Assembly (NCBI GenBank): GCA_017405865.1
Contig: JAFQZN010000008.1
Coordinates: 81,539-145,538 of the forward strand
Length of the DNA: 64,000 nucleotides
Reading direction: 5' to 3'
From: Oscillospiraceae bacterium
GTDB lineage: Bacteria > Bacillota > Clostridia > Oscillospirales > Oscillospiraceae
The notes under the pieces were generated by a model. That model was not told the origin of the DNA and made no database searches. It saw only the letters and a list, made by a program, of their open reading frames with translations. Both the position numbers and the translations under genes were made by a program. Of this stretch, positions 4,171-14,293 are shown one piece after another (position 1 is the first letter of the stretch; each line of letters begins with the position of its first letter).

Positions 4171-5553
4171 TTACTTGTGAAAACTTGCGTCGATTGCAGC
4201 CGCAGCCTTTCTTCCCGCGCCCATGGCAAGGATGACGGTCGCAGCGCCGGTCACGGCGTCTCCACCGGCATAGACACCCTCGCGTGTCGTCAAATTGTCC
4301 TCGTTGACGATCAGGCAGCCTTTCTTATTTGTTTCCAGACCGGGCGTCGTCGAACGGATCAGCGGATTGGGAGAGGTGCCGAGCGCCATAATGACGGTGT
4401 CGACCGACAGCTCAAACTCGCTGCCCGGGATTGCAATGGGACTGCGTCTGCCGGAGGCGTCAGGCTCGCCCAGCTCCATGCGGACGCACTGCATTGAGCC
4501 GACGCGGCCTGCGCCGTCTTCCAGAATCCTGACTGGATTGGTGAGCGTGAGGAATTCGATCCCCTCCTCCTTCGCGTGGAGCTGTTCTTCCAGCCGGGCG
4601 GGCATTTCCTTCTCGCTGCGGCGGTAGACGATATAGACGTGCTCCGCGCCGAGACGCTTCGCGCAGCGGGCGGCGTCCATTGCCACGTTGCCGCCGCCGA
4701 CCACGGCGACTGCGTTGGAGACAATGATGGGCGTATCGCTGCCGCGATTGTACGCCTTCATCAGATTGATCCTTGTCAGATATTCGTTCGCGGACAGAAC
4801 GCCCTTGAACGCCTCGCCCTCAATGTGCATGAACATAGGCAGGCCTGCACCCGAGCCGACGAAAACTGCACGGAAGCCCAGCTCAAACAGCTCGTCAATC
4901 GACAGCACCTTACCGATGACCATGTTTGTCATGACTTGTACGCCCATGGCCTTCAGCTTTTCGATCTCGTTTGCAACGAGCGTCTTCGGCAGACGGAATT
5001 CGGGAATGCCGTAGACCAGCACACCGCCTGCGGTATGTAAAGCCTCAAAGATACTGACCTCATAGCCCTTTTTTGCAAGCTCGCTTGCGCAGGTCAGACC
5101 GGACGGCCCGGAGCCGACCACGGCGACCTTAATGCCGTTCGATTCCGGCTTTTCTGGCATTTTGTTGACGTTCTCGCGGTACCAGTCCGCAACGAAGCGC
5201 TCCAAACGGCCGATCGCGACCGGTTCGCCCTTTGCGCCGCGAACGCACTTGCTTTCGCACTGCCGCTCCTGCGGGCAGACTCTGCCGGACAGCGCGGGCA
5301 GCGCGTTGGTCGAGGTGATGATCTCATAAGCCGCAAGGAAATCTCCTTCCGCGACCTTGGCGATAAATTCGGGAATACGGATGCTCACAGGGCAGGCGGT
5401 TACGCACTGCGGGTTTTTGCAATGCAGGCAGCGCTGCGCTTCGTTGACCGCCATTTCCGCTGTGTACCCTAACGTAACCTCCTTGAAATTACGGTTGCGG
5501 ACGTTCGGCGCCTGCTCCGGCATGGGAGTTTTGTTCATCTGCATATTCGGCAT
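4171..5553 (-). CDS. nfnB: NfnB/SudA-type large subunit (often annotated homotetrameric glutamate synthase)
   Basis: RCLHCKNPQCVTACPV and GRVCPQERQCESKC Fe-S motifs, two Rossmann motifs (GSGPSG, GGGNVA), YRR; paired with nfnA, no gltB nearby. Confidence 0.85.
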   Translation of the reverse strand: MPNMQMNKTPMPEQAPNVRNRNFKEVTLGYTAEMAVNEAQRCLHCKNPQCVTACPVSIRIPEFIAKVAEGDFLAAYEIITSTNALPALSGRVCPQERQCESKCVRGAKGEPVAIGRLERFVADWYRENVNKMPEKPESNGIKVAVVGSGPSGLTCASELAKKGYEVSIFEALHTAGGVLVYGIPEFRLPKTLVANEIEKLKAMGVQVMTNMVIGKVLSIDELFELGFRAVFVGSGAGLPMFMHIEGEAFKGVLSANEYLTRINLMKAYNRGSDTPIIVSNAVAVVGGGNVAMDAARCAKRLGAEHVYIVYRRSEKEMPARLEEQLHAKEEGIEFLTLTNPVRILEDGAGRVGSMQCVRMELGEPDASGRRSPIAIPGSEFELSVDTVIMALGTSPNPLIRSTTPGLETNKKGCLIVNEDNLTTREGVYAGGDAVTGAATVILAMGAGRKAAAAIDASFHK

Positions 5554-5567
5554 GGTGGTTCCTCCCT

Positions 5568-6422
5568 TCATCGGATCAGTGCTTTGCCGAGCGATTCGAT
5601 TCGGCACATATGTTCTCTTTCATCCTGGGCTTCCTGATCGCGGTAGGCGCTGTTACGGTTCATCAGCTCCGCAAAATCGACCTTGTGCCCGTCGAAATCC
5701 GGCCCCTCGACGCAGGCAAAGTGTACCGCGCCGTCGACCGTGACGCGGCAGCCGCCGCACATGCCCGTCCCGTCAATCATGATCGGATTGAGCGAGACGA
5801 CCGTCTTTATTCCGAAGGGCTTTGTCGTTTTGGCGACGAATCGCATCATTGGGATCGGGCCGATGGCAAGCACCTCGTCATAGTGGTTTCCCGCGTCCAG
5901 AAGCTGCTGCAGCTTGGCCGTGACAAAGCCTTGCTCGCCGTAGGTGCCGTCGTCCGTCATCACGTACAGGTGATCGCTGCAGGCGAGGAACTCGTCCTCT
6001 AGAATCACGATGTCCCTACTGCGGAAGCCGACGATAACGTCGACCTCGCAGCCCGCATCTTTGAAAGCCTGCGCAGAGGGCAGCGCGATGGCGCAGCCGA
6101 CGCCGCCGCCGATGACGCAAACCCGCTTGAGCCCCGCCGTTTCCGTCGGTCTTCCGAGCGGACCGACAAAATCGAGGATCGAATCACCCTCGTTCAGCTC
6201 GCCGAGCAGCTTGGTCGTCAGACCGACCTTTTGGAAAATCACGGTGACTGTCCCCTTCTCGCGGTCGTAGCCCGCAATCGTCAGCGGAACGCGTTCGCCG
6301 TATTCATCCACCCGGAAGATGATAAACTGGCCTGCTTTTGCCTTCTTTGCAACAAAAGGCGCTTCGATCTCCATTAACGTGATAGCGGAGTTGAGCTCTT
6401 TCTTTCTAACGATCTTGAACAT
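5568..6422 (-). CDS. nfnA: NfnA/SudB-type small subunit (FAD, [2Fe-2S])
   Basis: GQFIIFR, ERVPLTI, GPLG, GGGVG, DGTGMCGGCRV...FACVEGP. Confidence 0.85.
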   Translation of the reverse strand: MFKIVRKKELNSAITLMEIEAPFVAKKAKAGQFIIFRVDEYGERVPLTIAGYDREKGTVTVIFQKVGLTTKLLGELNEGDSILDFVGPLGRPTETAGLKRVCVIGGGVGCAIALPSAQAFKDAGCEVDVIVGFRSRDIVILEDEFLACSDHLYVMTDDGTYGEQGFVTAKLQQLLDAGNHYDEVLAIGPIPMMRFVAKTTKPFGIKTVVSLNPIMIDGTGMCGGCRVTVDGAVHFACVEGPDFDGHKVDFAELMNRNSAYRDQEAQDEREHMCRIESLGKALIR

Positions 6423-6497
6423 AAGCATCCACCTTTCCAAGTGATATTCTGAATGGATTATAACACAGTTTCGGGTAAACTCAATCTGTTTTCCATT

Positions 6498-9564: not shown

Positions 9565-9593
9565 TTGACAATTCCATTCTGTGGCGGTATACT
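9565..9593 (+). promoter_or_regulatory. sigmaA promoter of nrdG-nrdD-trxB
   Basis: TTGACA-17-TATACT. Confidence 0.85.
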
Positions 9594-9679: not shown

Positions 9680-10360
9680 ATGCGTATCGGAGGCCTTCAA
9701 AAGCTGACATTACTCGACTTTCCGGGACATGTTGCCTGCACGGTCTTCCTGCAGGGCTGCAACTTCCGTTGCCCCTTCTGCCACAATTCCTCGCTGGTTC
9801 TTGGGACGGAGGCAATCTCCGAAGACGAGGTTTTCCGCTTTCTGAACACGCGGCAGGGTCTTCTGGACGGCGTCGCGATCACCGGCGGCGAGCCGCTTCT
9901 TTCGGCAGATCTGCCGGACTTCCTTCGGAAGGTCAAGGCTCTCGGCTATCAGACTAAAGTTGATACCAACGGCAGCTTTCCTGAGAAGCTGCGCAGCCTG
10001 ATTGACGAAGGGCTGGTCGATTACGTCGCGATGGACGTCAAAAACAGCCCGGAAAAGTACGCCGAGACGGCCGGCGCCGAGAGCGTACTGGATGCAGTCC
10101 GGCAGAGCGTTGATATTTTAATGAAAGGCGCAGTCCCCTGCGAGTTCCGCACCACGGTGGTCGACGAGCTGCACGAGCCGTCCGATTTTGAAGCGATCGG
10201 CAGATGGCTTTCCGGCGCGCAGCGCTATTTTCTGCAGGGCTTCGTTGATTCCGGCGATATTCTGCGCCCCGGCCTGCACGCGGCAAGCAAGGAAAAAATG
10301 AAGCAATGTCTGGAAGCAGTCATTCCCTATCTTCCCACGTCACAAATCAGAGGTTTATAA
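9680..10360 (+). CDS. nrdG: Anaerobic RNR activating radical-SAM protein (NrdG2 type)
   Basis: MRIGGLQKLTLLDFPG, CNFRCPFCHN CxxxCxxC, ITGGEP, VDTNG, MDVK, EFRTT. Confidence 0.95.
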   Translation: MRIGGLQKLTLLDFPGHVACTVFLQGCNFRCPFCHNSSLVLGTEAISEDEVFRFLNTRQGLLDGVAITGGEPLLSADLPDFLRKVKALGYQTKVDTNGSFPEKLRSLIDEGLVDYVAMDVKNSPEKYAETAGAESVLDAVRQSVDILMKGAVPCEFRTTVVDELHEPSDFEAIGRWLSGAQRYFLQGFVDSGDILRPGLHAASKEKMKQCLEAVIPYLPTSQIRGL

Positions 10361-10385: not shown

Positions 10386-12773
10386 ATGTATCAAGTAGTA
10401 AAGCGCAATGACAAGGTCGTGGATTTCGACCTGTCGAAGATCTGTGTAGCCATTCAGAAGGCGTTTGACGCCCTCGGCAAGGACTACAACAAGGACACCA
10501 TCGACTTCCTCGCGCTCAAGGTAACGGCTGACTTTGAGCCGAAGATCAGAGATGGCAAGATCGCCGTGGAGGACGTGCAGGACAGCGTCGAGACCGTTTT
10601 GAGCCGCGCAGGCTACGACGACGTTGCAAAGGCGTATATCCTCTACCGCCGTCAGAGAGAAAAGATCCGCAACATGAAGTCCACCATTCTCGACTACAAG
10701 GAGCTTGTGGACAGCTACGTCAAGGCGCAGGACTGGCGCGTGAAGGAGAACTCCACCGTCACCTACTCCGTCGGCGGCCTGATCCTCTCGAACTCCGGCG
10801 CGATCACCGCAAACTACTGGCTCAGCGAAATCTACGACGATGAGATCGCAAACGCGCACAAGAACTGTGACCTGCACATCCACGATATGTCCATGCTGAC
10901 CGGCTACTGCGCAGGCTGGTCCCTGCGTCAGCTCATCCAGGAAGGCCTCGGCGGCGTTCCCGGCAAGATCACCTCCGCTCCGGCGAAGCATCTTTCCTCT
11001 CTGTGCAACCAGATGGTCAATTTCCTCGGCATCATGCAGAACGAATGGGCAGGCGCGCAGGCGTTCTCGTCCTTCGACACCTATCTTGCTCCGTTCGTCA
11101 AGGTCGACAACCTGAACTACGACCAAGTGAAAAAGTGCGTCGAGTCCTTCATCTACGGCGTCAACACTCCGTCCAGATGGGGTACGCAGGCGCCCTTCTC
11201 CAACGTTACGCTCGACTGGACCGTTCCGGATGACATGGCGGAGCTGCCCGCGATCGTCGGCGGCAAGGAGATGCCCTTCAAGTACAAGGACTGCAAGGCG
11301 GAGATGGACATGGTCAACCGCGCCTTCATTGAGATCATGATCGAAGGCGACGCAAACGGCCGCGGCTTCCAGTATCCGATCCCCACCTATTCCATCACGA
11401 AGGAATTTGACTGGTCCGAGACGGAGAACAACAAGCTCCTGTTCGAGATGACAGCAAAGTACGGCACTCCTTATTTCTCCAACTACGTCAACAGCGATAT
11501 GCAGCCGAGCGACGTGCGCTCCATGTGCTGCCGTCTGCGTCTTGACCTGCGCGAGCTGCGCAAGAAATCCGGCGGCTTCTTTGGCAGCGGCGAATCCACC
11601 GGCTCGGTCGGCGTCGTCACGATCAACATGCCGAAGATCGCGTACCTTTCCAAGACGCCGGAGGAATTCTATAAGCGTCTGGATCACCTGATGGACATTG
11701 CCGCCCGTTCCCTGAAGATCAAGCGCACCGTCATTACCCGCCTGATGGAAGAGGGTCTGTACCCCTACACCAAGCGCTATCTCGGCACCTTTGAAAACCA
11801 CTTCTCCACCCTCGGCCTGATCGGCATGAATGAGGTCGGCCTGAATGCAAAGTGGCTGCGCAAGGACATGACGCACAAGGAAACGCAGGAGTTTACGAAG
11901 GAAGTTCTGAACCACATGCGCGAGCGCCTGTCCGACTATCAGGAGCAGTACGGCGACCTGTACAACCTCGAGGCGACCCCTGCCGAGTCCACGACCTACC
12001 GTCTTGCAAAGCATGACAAGAAGGACTTCCCCGACATCATCACCGCCAACGAGAACGGCACCCCGTACTACACCAACTCCTCTCACCTGCCCGTCGGCTA
12101 CACGGAGGACATCTTCTCCGCACTGGACGTGCAGGACGAGCTGCAGACGCTTTACACCTCCGGCACCGTCTTCCACGCCTTCCTCGGCGAGAAGCTGCCC
12201 GACTGGCGCTCTGCCGCAGCGCTGGTGCGAAAGATCGCGGAGAATTACCGCCTGCCGTACTACACCCTTTCCCCGACCTACTCCGTCTGCCGCGAGCACG
12301 GCTATATCACCGGCGAGCAGTACACCTGCCCGATCTGCGGCAAGCCGACCGAGGTCTACAGCCGTATCACCGGCTACTACCGCCCCGTGCAGAACTTCAA
12401 CGACGGCAAGGCGCAGGAATTCAAGGATCGTCTGGAATATAACGTTGCAAGCTCCATGAAAAACCGTTTCGGTACGCCGGAAGCTCCCGCGCAGAGCGAA
12501 ACGGAAGCACCTGCCGCTGCAGAAAGCTGCGGCGATGGCAGATTGGTTCTCTTCACCACGAGCACCTGCCCGAAGTGCGTCATGGCAAAGAAGTTCCTCG
12601 CCGACGCAGGCATTGCTTACGAGACGGTCGTCGTTGACGAAACGCCCGAGGCAGCGAGAAAGTACGGTGTGCGTCAGGCGCCCACCCTGCTGATCCTTGA
12701 CGGCGACAAGGAAATCGAGCGCGTGGAGAATCCCTCCAACATCCGCGCCTTTGCGGACGCACACAAGGCGTAA
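10386..12773 (+). CDS. nrdD: Class III ribonucleotide reductase with N-terminal ATP cone and fused C-terminal glutaredoxin/NrdH-like domain
   Basis: ATP cone, YCAG, SMCCRL loop, CREHG..CPICG Zn site, YSRITGY glycyl-radical loop; then an Ala/Pro/Glu linker and LFTTSTCPKC...QAPTL. Confidence 0.95.
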   Translation: MYQVVKRNDKVVDFDLSKICVAIQKAFDALGKDYNKDTIDFLALKVTADFEPKIRDGKIAVEDVQDSVETVLSRAGYDDVAKAYILYRRQREKIRNMKSTILDYKELVDSYVKAQDWRVKENSTVTYSVGGLILSNSGAITANYWLSEIYDDEIANAHKNCDLHIHDMSMLTGYCAGWSLRQLIQEGLGGVPGKITSAPAKHLSSLCNQMVNFLGIMQNEWAGAQAFSSFDTYLAPFVKVDNLNYDQVKKCVESFIYGVNTPSRWGTQAPFSNVTLDWTVPDDMAELPAIVGGKEMPFKYKDCKAEMDMVNRAFIEIMIEGDANGRGFQYPIPTYSITKEFDWSETENNKLLFEMTAKYGTPYFSNYVNSDMQPSDVRSMCCRLRLDLRELRKKSGGFFGSGESTGSVGVVTINMPKIAYLSKTPEEFYKRLDHLMDIAARSLKIKRTVITRLMEEGLYPYTKRYLGTFENHFSTLGLIGMNEVGLNAKWLRKDMTHKETQEFTKEVLNHMRERLSDYQEQYGDLYNLEATPAESTTYRLAKHDKKDFPDIITANENGTPYYTNSSHLPVGYTEDIFSALDVQDELQTLYTSGTVFHAFLGEKLPDWRSAAALVRKIAENYRLPYYTLSPTYSVCREHGYITGEQYTCPICGKPTEVYSRITGYYRPVQNFNDGKAQEFKDRLEYNVASSMKNRFGTPEAPAQSETEAPAAAESCGDGRLVLFTTSTCPKCVMAKKFLADAGIAYETVVVDETPEAARKYGVRQAPTLLILDGDKEIERVENPSNIRAFADAHKA

Positions 12774-12784
12774 GAGGGCTTTGT

Positions 12785-13687
12785 ATGTATGATATTATCA
12801 TCGTCGGCGCAGGTCCTGCGGGTCTGACCGCAGCGATCTACGCGCGGCGCGCCGGAAAGAGCGTCCTCGTACTGGAAAAGGACACCTTCGGCGGGCAGGT
12901 CACCTTCTCCCCGAAGCTGGAAAACTATCCGGGATTTCAGGAGATCAGCGGCAACGAGCTGGCGCAGAAAATGCTTGAGCAGGCGCTCGCGCTCGGCGCG
13001 GACGTCGATATGGATAACGTGACAGACGTTATTGGCGGCAATGTGAAAACCGTTATCGGCGAAAATGCGACGTACGAGGCGAAGGCCGTCATCATTGCAG
13101 CGGGCGCACGGCACCGCAGACTGGGTCTTCCCCGTGAAGAGGAACTAATCGGAAACGGCATCTCCTTCTGCGCGGTCTGCGACGGCGCGTTCTACAAGGG
13201 GCAGCACGTCGCCGTGATCGGCGGCGGCAATACCGCCCTGCAGGAGATCCTGCTCCTGTCCGAGGTCTGCAGCAAGGTCACGGTCGTGCAGAATCTCGCC
13301 TTCCTGACCGGCGAGCAGAAGATGATCGACGCGGTGCAGTCCAGAGAAAACGTTGACGTGATCTATTCCACCGTCGTCACCGCCTACGAGGGCGAAAGCA
13401 GCCTGACCGCGCTCCGTCTGATCAACACCGAGACGAACGAGGAAAGCCGCCTGGAAGTGGACGGCGCCTTCCTCGCCATCGGCACGGTGCCGGAAAACGG
13501 CGCGTATCAGAAGGTCGCAAAGATCAACGAGCAAGGCTATATCGAAGCGGACGAGCGCTGCATGACGAATACGCCCGGCGTCTTCGTCGCAGGCGACTGC
13601 CGGACGAAGACCTACCGTCAGGTCGCCACGGCGATTGCAGACGGCGCAGCCGCCGCGCTCAACGCCTGCCGCTATCTCGATGCATGA
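12785..13687 (+). CDS. trxB: Thioredoxin reductase-like flavoprotein with atypical nucleotide-binding motif
   Basis: GAGPAG, ENYPGF, FCAVCDG, GGGNTA, GVFVAGD, QVATAIADG; the HRR position reads QNL. Confidence 0.88.
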   Translation: MYDIIIVGAGPAGLTAAIYARRAGKSVLVLEKDTFGGQVTFSPKLENYPGFQEISGNELAQKMLEQALALGADVDMDNVTDVIGGNVKTVIGENATYEAKAVIIAAGARHRRLGLPREEELIGNGISFCAVCDGAFYKGQHVAVIGGGNTALQEILLLSEVCSKVTVVQNLAFLTGEQKMIDAVQSRENVDVIYSTVVTAYEGESSLTALRLINTETNEESRLEVDGAFLAIGTVPENGAYQKVAKINEQGYIEADERCMTNTPGVFVAGDCRTKTYRQVATAIADGAAAALNACRYLDA

Positions 13688-13689
13688 TT

Positions 13690-13726
13690 AAAAACGGACT
13701 TCTCATAATAAGAGAAGTCCGTTTTT
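13690..13726. terminator. Bidirectional intrinsic terminator ending the nrd operon
   Basis: 15-bp perfect stem AAAAACGGACTTCTC/GAGAAGTCCGTTTTT. Confidence 0.9.
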
Positions 13727-13738
13727 GTCGGTGTCGTA

Positions 13739-14293
13739 TTACTCTGCGGAAGATTCCTCGGTTTTCTCTTCTCGCAGCTCTGCACCGTAGCGGCAGATGA
13801 CCGAGGTGACGATCATCATCACGCCCAAGCCGAGAGAAGTAAAACGGTCAAGCGTAAGCTCGTTCATCTCCGGATGTGCCGCAGTTACAGCAGCAATACC
13901 GATGGAGCAGACGATCGCCGTGCAGATCGGAATCACGATGGCAAGGATGCCCAAACGCTTCAGCTCCTTCGCGCCGCGCGTCGTAAAGGGCGTTCCGTCA
14001 GCCAGCTCGTTACGAAAATAAATCTCTGCGAATTTGGAGAGAACGGCCTCCGAAGCGCACAGCACCATACCGACGCCTATCTCGGTATAGAGCGCAGCTG
14101 TACTCAAGCCGGCTTTATTCTCGATGATGCTGCGGATGGTAACGCCGCCGACCTTGAAGCTCTCAAATCCGGCAATCAGACTGATCAGACCGACAATGCA
14201 GATGCAGAAGCAGACGATGCAGAGAATAAAAATAATCTTGCTGAAGATTCTTCCGATCTTTGCCAGCACCTGAATGGTCTTTAACGATTTCAT
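13739..14293 (-). CDS. Membrane protein, DUF2975-like
   Basis: Four hydrophobic segments and GTPFT..AKELKRLG; own RBS AGGAGGAG and TTGACA-17-TATAAT promoter (14330-14358). Confidence 0.65.
   Translation of the reverse strand: MKSLKTIQVLAKIGRIFSKIIFILCIVCFCICIVGLISLIAGFESFKVGGVTIRSIIENKAGLSTAALYTEIGVGMVLCASEAVLSKFAEIYFRNELADGTPFTTRGAKELKRLGILAIVIPICTAIVCSIGIAAVTAAHPEMNELTLDRFTSLGLGVMMIVTSVICRYGAELREEKTEESSAE

Follow-up and report, generated by a model that had tools for sequence, protein, structure and literature searches.

Within the 64,000-nucleotide stretch of Oscillospiraceae bacterium DNA analysed here (contig JAFQZN010000008.1 of assembly GCA_017405865.1; hereafter the window), the open reading frame (ORF) 12785-13687 on the forward strand encodes what its motifs, its profile matches and its predicted fold indicate to be an intact, trxB-like thioredoxin reductase (TR) of the low-molecular-weight (low-Mr) type, 300 residues long. 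In its pyridine-nucleotide domain the HRRxxxR motif, whose basic residues clamp the 2'-phosphate of NADPH, has given way to QNLAFLT, one instance of a conserved signature that we call Q..T, and the gene directly follows that of an anaerobic ribonucleotide reductase (RNR) with a redoxin tail. We propose that the nucleotide site has been retuned from NADPH and that the enzyme probably prefers NADH, as judged from its sequence and from the analogy with NADH-linked enzymes of other anaerobes; by the same analogy, DNA-precursor synthesis in this gut bacterium is probably powered by NADH.

The profile TIGR01292 (thioredoxin-disulfide reductase) matches the product over residues 2-298 with 332.6 bits, and its matches in the PDB include 7aaw (E 6e-75) and 7jyp (E 1.5e-70). 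The AlphaFold2 (AF2) model, with a pLDDT of 92.7, displays the two-domain TR fold and superimposes on 7AAW, 4GCM and 7JYP with TM-scores of 0.92-0.94, the best match being 7JYP (TM-score of 0.94, root-mean-square deviation of 1.6 Å). A motif search and an alignment that included TrxB and the reductase portion of AhpF, both taken from E. coli MG1655, locate the FAD-binding GxGxxG as GAGPAG (residues 8-13; 12806-12823, +), the redox-active CAVC, which aligns with C135 and C138 of the E. coli enzyme (residues 129-132; 13169-13180, +), and, within the pyridine-nucleotide domain, the loop that binds the pyrophosphate as GGGNTA (residues 146-151; 13220-13237, +). The alignment also gives the C-terminal FAD motif as GVFVAGDC (residues 265-272; 13577-13600, +) and puts GNG (residues 123-125; 13151-13159, +) in register with G[R/K]G, the loop that binds thioredoxin (G-R130-G in E. 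coli). The statement of an initial annotation, made from the sequence, that the FAD motifs, CAVC and GGGNTA are intact is borne out by both the translation and the alignment.

In the column of the 2'-phosphate motif E. coli TrxB has HLIHRRDGFRAEK, the ORF product VTVVQNLAFLTGEQ and AhpF TLLEFAPEMKADQ, and VTVVQNLAFLTGEQ falls exactly on VHLIHRRDGFRAEK of TrxB and VTLLEFAPEMKADQ of AhpF. QNLAFLT (13289-13309, +), which contains neither arginine nor lysine, thus lies opposite HRRDGFR, the individual replacements being H175 to Q169, R176 to N170, R177 to L171 and R181 to T175. The triplet HRR at residues 110-112 (ARHRRLG) is a piece of the FAD domain and unrelated to the 2'-phosphate motif. Strand β-2 of the nucleotide domain comprises residues 164-168 in the AF2 model, and Q169, at its C-terminal end, thus holds the position that classically discriminates NAD from NADP. 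The initial annotation had read VQNLAFLTGE in place of HRRxxxR, which the alignment supports, starting at 13289, which is the codon of the glutamine; the valine itself begins one codon earlier, at 13286. It had also called the motif lacking, and HRRxxxR is indeed gone, but a conserved and recurrent alternative signature stands in its place. Its remark that AhpF is without HRRxxxR agrees with the arginine-free EFAPEMK found there. In the mechanism that we propose, the GGGNTA pyrophosphate loop would be kept while the four basic clamping residues are replaced by Q169-N-L-A-F-L-T175, and Q169 could hydrogen-bond the hydroxyl groups of the adenosine ribose.

How widespread the replacement is can be seen in a set of 219 full-length homologues, drawn from the 150 best representatives of a 1.8-billion-protein library, 80 named genomic loci, Thermotogae sequences and E. 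coli references. In this set 127 sequences are of the HRR type, 33 carry both Q169 and T175, and 59 have other residues. The signature of the second class is Q-x-x-x-x-[LF]-T, with the glutamine and the threonine invariant in all 33 members, L, F or M at position 174, N (20 sequences) or D (7) at position 170 and L at position 171 in 27. All 33 possess the GGG pyrophosphate loop, and 23 have no basic residue in the replacement loop, the mean net charge of which is -1.3 in the Q..T class vs. +1.5 in the HRR class, where the loop holds 4-5 basic residues. A third class, TLFDKFF, has GDA or GDG where GGG would be, and because this sister class has lost GGG, the triplet is not kept by default. Retention of GGG together with the loss of all positive charge from the 2'-phosphate site matches what one would expect to see in a sequence if the nucleotide had changed from NADPH to NADH. 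The motif is also invariant in genomes of the same genus, in which the enzyme is 74-92% identical. This invariance and the conservation of GGG throughout the class argue against chance decay; as far as the alignment can tell, decay is excluded and Q..T is a conserved alternative signature.

The signature did not spread from a single ancestor. Trees were built after removal of the motif columns, a 219-row FastTree and a 94-row IQ-TREE. The tree with NTR, AhpF and FFTR sequences (FFTR, flavin thioredoxin reductase that depends on ferredoxin) that the initial annotation had suggested was thereby realized in part: NTR, AhpF and additional Thermotogae references are included, but FFTR sequences are not (CaFFTR, CpFFTR, DvTR3, TaTR and Cp34 were left out). 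The Q..T label requires 11-12 changes on the trees, of which at least nine (FastTree) and at least five (IQ-TREE) are forced by well-supported branches, and an approximately unbiased (AU) test, likewise without the motif columns, rejects one Q..T clade (delta lnL of 338, p 3e-46). The product of ORF 12785-13687 lies within an all-Q..T clade of 12 (FastTree support 97; unstarred in the quick IQ-TREE tree). Further origins are seen in a second clade of Clostridia, in two groups of Thermotogae among which HRR-type members of the phylum are interspersed, and in several singletons with HRR-type sisters. According to these trees the signature arose several times, and its likeness to the Thermotogae enzymes is convergent. 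That the same residues were reached repeatedly speaks for selection towards a defined ligand.

Two observations on motif diversity stand apart from this series. A TR homologue in a metagenome-assembled genome (MAG) of Desulfobacterales (L084:8001-8897) carries VVQFLETLTAD, close to the Thermotoga motif, and adjoins E. coli AhpF in the FastTree, a placement that puts the Q..T signature also outside the TrxB branch. HQFD[HNQ]FQ with an intact GGGNSA is a further conserved replacement motif, whose carriers form a well-supported clade (L046, L087 and L088, from Chlorobi and Bacteroidales MAGs, and P0220).

The Thermotogae supply the biochemical precedent. The best structural match, 7JYP, is the TR of Thermosipho africanus, whose sequence ITMVQNLPYLTAAK contains VQNLPYLT; a literature search found no published paper on this structure. 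The orthologue of Thermotoga sp. reads VQLLETLTAAK, and a family-level search around this genome found [VI]QLLETLT and GGGDSA in all ten genomes with an enzyme at least 74% identical, an identity from which we took them to be species of the genus Thermotoga. Because all ten carry it, the T. maritima enzyme is expected to carry the Q..T motif as well. The TR of T. maritima, which works with a glutaredoxin (Grx)-like partner protein, is reported to use NADH in preference to NADPH (Yang & Ma 2010, quoted in PMC5627308), and directly upstream of the reductase gene in two Thermotogae genomes (Thermosipho and Thermotoga sp.) lies a gene for a Grx/thioredoxin-like protein of ~220 residues. In passages quoted elsewhere, the T. 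acidophilum TR is described as NADH-dependent and without HRRxxxR (PMC6262447), and Cp34/Cp9 of C. pasteurianum as a TR-like enzyme that depends on NADH and has a partner resembling Grx (PMC3720550). The initial annotation had suggested a donor other than NADPH, which the motif replacement, the loop charge and the Thermotoga precedent favour. It had ranked NADH above ferredoxin on the strength of the retained GGGxxA, and conservation, charge, recurrence and the same precedent point, by inference, in this direction.

The reductase gene is the third of an operon with the order nrdG, nrdD, trxB. NrdG, the activase of class III RNR (9680-10360, +), is a radical SAM protein that matches TIGR02495 (NrdG2) with 213.6 bits (cut-off 131) as well as the Pfam family Radical_SAM. 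Its frame is open from a GTG at 9581, but the ATG at 9680 is the likelier start, as the NrdG2 match begins at residue 36 of the long ORF and a GGAGG lies 8 nucleotides upstream. The anaerobic ribonucleoside-triphosphate reductase NrdD (10386-12773, +; 795 residues) matches NF006126 with 1134 bits and PF13597 (NRDD) with 625.8 bits, and consists of an ATP-cone (PF03477, residues 3-92), the catalytic core (residues 121-685), a Pro/Ala/Glu-rich linker and a C-terminal redoxin (PF00462, Glutaredoxin, residues 721-770). The core has the double-cysteine finger-loop motif MCCR (residues 380-383; 11523-11534, +), a motif class defined in PMC9669993, and inside the NRDD family match the glycyl-radical motif RITGY (12363-12377, +). 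The glutaredoxin/NrdH-like tail (12534-12770, +) scores 39 bits against PF00462, matches the NrdH, YruB and MJ0307 families weakly and has a CPKC active site (12567-12578). The trxB start lies 11 nucleotides after the nrdD stop at 12773 and is preceded by a GAGGG ribosome-binding site, which bears out the link to RNR made in the initial annotation. The operon ends at a 16-bp hairpin with A and U runs on its flanks (13689-13727; -26.8 kcal/mol, z -7.6, none of 200 shuffles as good), which was missed by a simple terminator scan and found by folding; it is a bidirectional terminator between trxB and a convergent DUF2975 gene.

In this arrangement electrons would flow from NADH via FAD to the CAVC dithiol, from there to the CPKC disulfide of the redoxin domain tethered to NrdD, and finally to the cysteines in the active site of the class III RNR, an enzyme of the MCCR type, the outcome being deoxyribonucleoside triphosphate (dNTP) synthesis without formate or NADPH. 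We infer that the tethered redoxin is the electron acceptor of the trxB product and that turnover of this NrdD is thiol-dependent. The reductant of MCCR-type NrdD has been left open (PMC9669993). SCCR is found in the class III RNRs of N. bacilliformis, for which the reductant is thioredoxin, and of T. maritima (PMC9669993); the latter depends on a protein factor of more than 10 kDa. In PMC6187632 a single grx::nrdD fusion is listed, taken from RefSeq, and a fused Grx, that of F. ignava Grx::NrdB, was demonstrated to reduce a class I RNR.

The gene order is retained among relatives. In the named genomes with loci L020-L024, L026, L027 and L029, nrdD with the redoxin tail lies directly upstream of the reductase gene, with NrdD 78-83% and the reductase 44-57% identical across loci; the reductase motif is Q..T in L020, L021, L022 and L024, HRR in L023, L027 and L029, and TLFDKLF with GDGNSA in L026. 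Across 40 related genomes, a redoxin-tailed nrdD directly precedes each of the 23 Q..T genes but only one of the 17 HRR-type genes (in G011), counts that are phylogenetically non-independent. The thioredoxin-binding loop G[R/K]G (PMC5627308) has its basic residue in one of nine nrdD-linked enzymes vs. 68% of the HRR enzymes, and its rarity in the nrdD-linked enzymes fits a different partner surface. Eight other genomes of the genus possess an HRR-type copy in addition to the Q-type enzyme (adjoining trxA in G017), and this coexistence fits separate roles. The more general proposition that the gene of a Q..T enzyme always has a redoxin gene beside it does not hold, since the Defluviitalea copy is isolated.

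Some nrdD-linked TR homologues are without both nucleotide motifs (L026:8001-8894, from a Clostridia MAG, P0145, P0164, P0185 and P0236), with GDGNSA or GDANTA for GGG and TLFDK[FL]F for HRRxxxR. The idea that the L026 enzyme is FFTR-like was dropped, given a PDB search in which 6gna matched with E 3e-31 and NTRs scored better. From its motifs, the TLFDK[FL]F class is a candidate for a reductase that occupies this operon slot and works without nucleotides.

Could the enzyme be a general housekeeping TR, with canonical TrxA rather than the NrdD tail as its main substrate and the nrdD neighbourhood incidental? We regard this as rather unlikely, although the inventory of the genome gives it some substance. 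No other TIGR01292-like gene is present in the genome (2.08 Mb, 92% complete) or in any of its five nearest relatives (G001, G004, G005, G009 and G021; reductase 87-92% identical), two of which are 100% complete, and there is one canonical trxA, with a WCGPC active site. A second trxB lost at an assembly break was considered and rejected, because trxA lies in the middle of its contig (C49), where it has a terminator to itself and no neighbouring trxB, and the two complete relatives have the same inventory. The association of all 23 Q..T genes of the related genomes with nrdD and its redoxin, and GNG in place of G[R/K]G, speak against a housekeeping role, and so does what lies next to trxA. A gene for a 65-residue protein (MKITLNPDAEIV...GGYCPCR...KCMC...GFCHCMLYYKSK; motifs CPC, CMC and CHC) is located 6 nucleotides upstream of trxA in the same genome, outside the window (C49:6376-6882), and matches Pfam FeThRed_B, the catalytic chain of ferredoxin-thioredoxin reductase, with 24.2 bits (cut-off 22); a comparison with solved structures gave no match. 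The protein is found in 20 of 41 relatives with 61-95% identity, stands directly before trxA in eight of 12 copies examined, and is present in 14 of the 19 genomes of the genus with a Q-type enzyme and in none of the four HRR-only genomes. It may be a minimal ferredoxin:thioredoxin reductase and possibly supplies the reductase of TrxA, and the argument from a sole TR to a housekeeping role is weaker because of its position. A division in which TrxA is fed from ferredoxin via the 65-residue protein and the flavoenzyme serves the RNR tail is plausible; the housekeeping and RNR-serving roles are compatible with each other. In a genome of the same order (G027, 98% complete) the search for thioredoxin-reductase family members gave nothing at E <= 1e-40, but a 77% identical copy of the 65-residue protein is present, and this organism may rely wholly on the iron-sulfur route.

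As to the donor, several points weigh against a preference for NADH. Where β-2 ends, a Rossmann site of the classical NAD-specific kind carries Asp or Glu; here the residue is Gln. The TIGR01292 score falls narrowly below the curated (trusted) cut-off of 343.45. Ferredoxin would be a physiologically plausible donor, as the organism is an anaerobe rich in ferredoxin and has both an NfnAB-like gene pair and, in the window, enzymes of the PFOR/IOR type. An NADH preference of the trxB product and its close relatives would follow by homology, and the link to NADH runs through a Thermotoga enzyme that is ~40% identical, belongs to another clade and is known through quotation of the primary paper. 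Moreover, the T. maritima TR still uses NADPH, so that specificity is perhaps relaxed and not switched.

This last point leads to an enzyme of relaxed or dual specificity, which would still use NADPH efficiently, alone or beside NADH, and hold the 2'-phosphate by Q169, N170, T175 and backbone amides. Polar side chains are able to bind phosphate, the quoted account of the T. maritima enzyme describes preference for NADH and not exclusion of NADPH, and the HRR motif kept in some nrdD-linked enzymes (L023, L027, L029 and G011) implies that NADPH can serve an nrdD operon. NADPH would also be at hand. The NfnAB-like pair, 5 kb upstream of the nrd operon, matches TIGR01316 (568 bits; 4171-5607, -) and NF004862 (406 bits; 5568-6440, -), families that indicate an NADPH-dependent subunit of the glutamate-synthase family and a sulfide/dihydroorotate-dehydrogenase-like FAD/NAD subunit, respectively, and thereby a likely NADH-dependent ferredoxin:NADP oxidoreductase. 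Because such a pair can make NADPH, the motif change was not forced by a shortage of this nucleotide. On the other hand, the loop has no basic residue and a negative net charge, with the aspartate at position 170 in seven of the 33 members, and H-R-[R/S]...R/K is kept in all 119 NADPH-type sequences of the set, as if the arginines were needed for good NADPH binding. The coexistence of Q-type and HRR-type enzymes in eight genomes also counts against this reading, and we consider relaxed specificity unlikely.

Less probable still is a ferredoxin- or flavodoxin-dependent flavoenzyme that works independently of pyridine nucleotides, like the clostridial FFTR. The absence of HRRxxxR is shared with FFTR, oxidoreductases linked to ferredoxin are present in the host, which is a strict anaerobe, and the class III RNR of a methanogen is known to be fed from ferredoxin via FDR and an NrdH-like redoxin (work cited in PMC6262447). 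FFTRs of clostridia, however, have neither GxGxxA nor HRRxxxR (PMC10880999); GxGxxA is missing or degraded in FFTR and DvTRi, yet GGG is invariant across the Q..T class. The similarity is also weak, with CaFFTR (6gna) and GvDTR (5j60) at E 2e-38 and DvTRi (5nii) at E 5e-31 vs. 1e-75 to 1e-48 for NAD(P)H-type enzymes and AhpF. The cyanobacterial FFTR (DTR) requires a C-terminal tail with an aromatic residue that stacks on FAD (PMC8154056), but our protein ends in ...ACRYLDA with its last helix (residues 280-299). Intact GGG, weak similarity to 6GNA and 5J60 and the missing tail led us to reject membership in FFTR; it is the separate nrdD-linked class with TLFDKFF and GDGN that resembles a truly nucleotide-free variant. 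Membership in two other families was rejected as well, in AhpF because the 300-residue protein has no N-terminal tandem thioredoxin fold, and in the DvTRi type because TQ/NGK is absent and GGG intact.

A decayed or non-functional paralogue, suggested by the loss of the canonical motif and the score just under the TIGR01292 cut-off, is hardly credible for an intact frame that keeps its other catalytic motifs and a genus-invariant signature, yields a confident AF2 model and is the sole copy in its genome.

Beyond the shared hairpin terminator, the convergent DUF2975 gene codes for a membrane protein of 184 residues (13739-14293, -), and a perfect promoter-like TTGACA-17-TATAAT is present at 14358-14330 (-).

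If DNA-precursor synthesis does draw on NADH, the supply of these precursors in abundant gut Clostridia would be tied to the NADH pool and not to NADPH or formate. The nrd operon offers a complete candidate electron chain, with nucleotide-linked flavoenzyme, tethered redoxin and RNR, for the question of the MCCR reductant (PMC9669993), which could thereby be tested directly by means of three recombinant proteins. Being recurrent, always accompanied by GGG and shared with the Thermotoga genomes, the Q..T signature could also serve as a simple sequence rule to predict the donor specificity of TRs across anaerobes, all of which annotation pipelines now label 'NADPH'. More tentatively, and as a picture that may well prove too broad, we suggest that many gut Oscillospirales run two disulfide circuits, one from NADH through the Q..T enzyme and the NrdD redoxin to RNR without formate or NADPH, the other from ferredoxin through the 65-residue protein to thioredoxin; that Q-x-x-x-x-L-T is a recurrent code for NADH specificity in low-Mr TRs; and that, depending on the lineage, the operon slot is filled by an NADPH-type (HRR), NADH-type (Q..T) or nucleotide-free (TLFDKFF) enzyme. 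Judging from the genomes, the combination of Q..T, a reductase in the operon and an NrdD-tethered redoxin is widespread in gut Clostridia, and a biochemical test of it was not found in the searchable literature. NADH-preferring low-Mr TRs and thioredoxin-dependent NrdDs were already known; our analysis extends and connects these findings and overturns nothing.

Compared with canonical NADPH-dependent TRs (E. coli TrxB and 7AAW of B. cereus), the trxB product is 39-41% identical and shares the domain order, the FAD motifs, CxxC and GGGxxA. It differs in the replacement of H175, R176, R177 and R181, in the Asn in place of the thioredoxin-binding Arg, and in the location of its gene in an nrd operon. 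The Thermotogae TRs have the same low-Mr fold, keep GGG, show the same change from HRRxxxR to Q-x-x-x-x-L-T (VQNLPYLT in Thermosipho, VQLLETLT in Thermotoga) and employ a glutaredoxin-like partner instead of a classical thioredoxin. With ~40% identity they form no common clade with our enzyme (AU test as above); in addition, they keep G[R/K]G where it has GNG, and their partner is a free protein of ~220 residues encoded upstream, whereas in the present case NrdD itself carries the putative partner domain.

Cp34/Cp9 and AhpF are likewise TR-type flavoenzymes linked to NADH that serve one client via a small Grx-like redoxin (as quoted in PMC3720550). Their client is a peroxiredoxin and here it would be RNR, Cp34 being compared by its description; AhpF also has an N-terminal double thioredoxin-fold domain of ~200 residues, which is absent here, and our protein aligns only with AhpF residues 213-515. 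Altered 2'-phosphate motifs are also seen in TR paralogues of another anaerobe, D. vulgaris, namely TR3, which prefers NADH and keeps GGGxxAxE, and TRi, which is independent of NAD(P)H. DvTRi combines TQ/NGK with a degenerate GEGxxAxN, where the trxB product has QNLAFLT and an intact GGGNTA, and DvTR3, again compared by description, has CxQ at the thioredoxin-binding position and VHY before CxxC, where the trxB product has GNG and ISF. CaFFTR (6GNA/6GND) and the cyanobacterial FFTR/DTR (5J60) are flavin TR homologues of anaerobes that are also without HRRxxxR, but they are far more distant in sequence (E ~1e-38), and FFTR is without GxGxxA as well.

On the RNR side, the NrdD2 enzymes of N. bacilliformis and T. 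maritima share the double-cysteine finger loop with our NrdD, and the known ones take a protein dithiol and not formate; an active-site Glu is the proposed proton source in enzymes of this type. They have SCCR, whereas MCCR is found here, together with a C-terminally tethered redoxin and a reductase encoded in the same operon. The F. ignava Grx::NrdB resembles it in having a redoxin domain fused to an RNR subunit.

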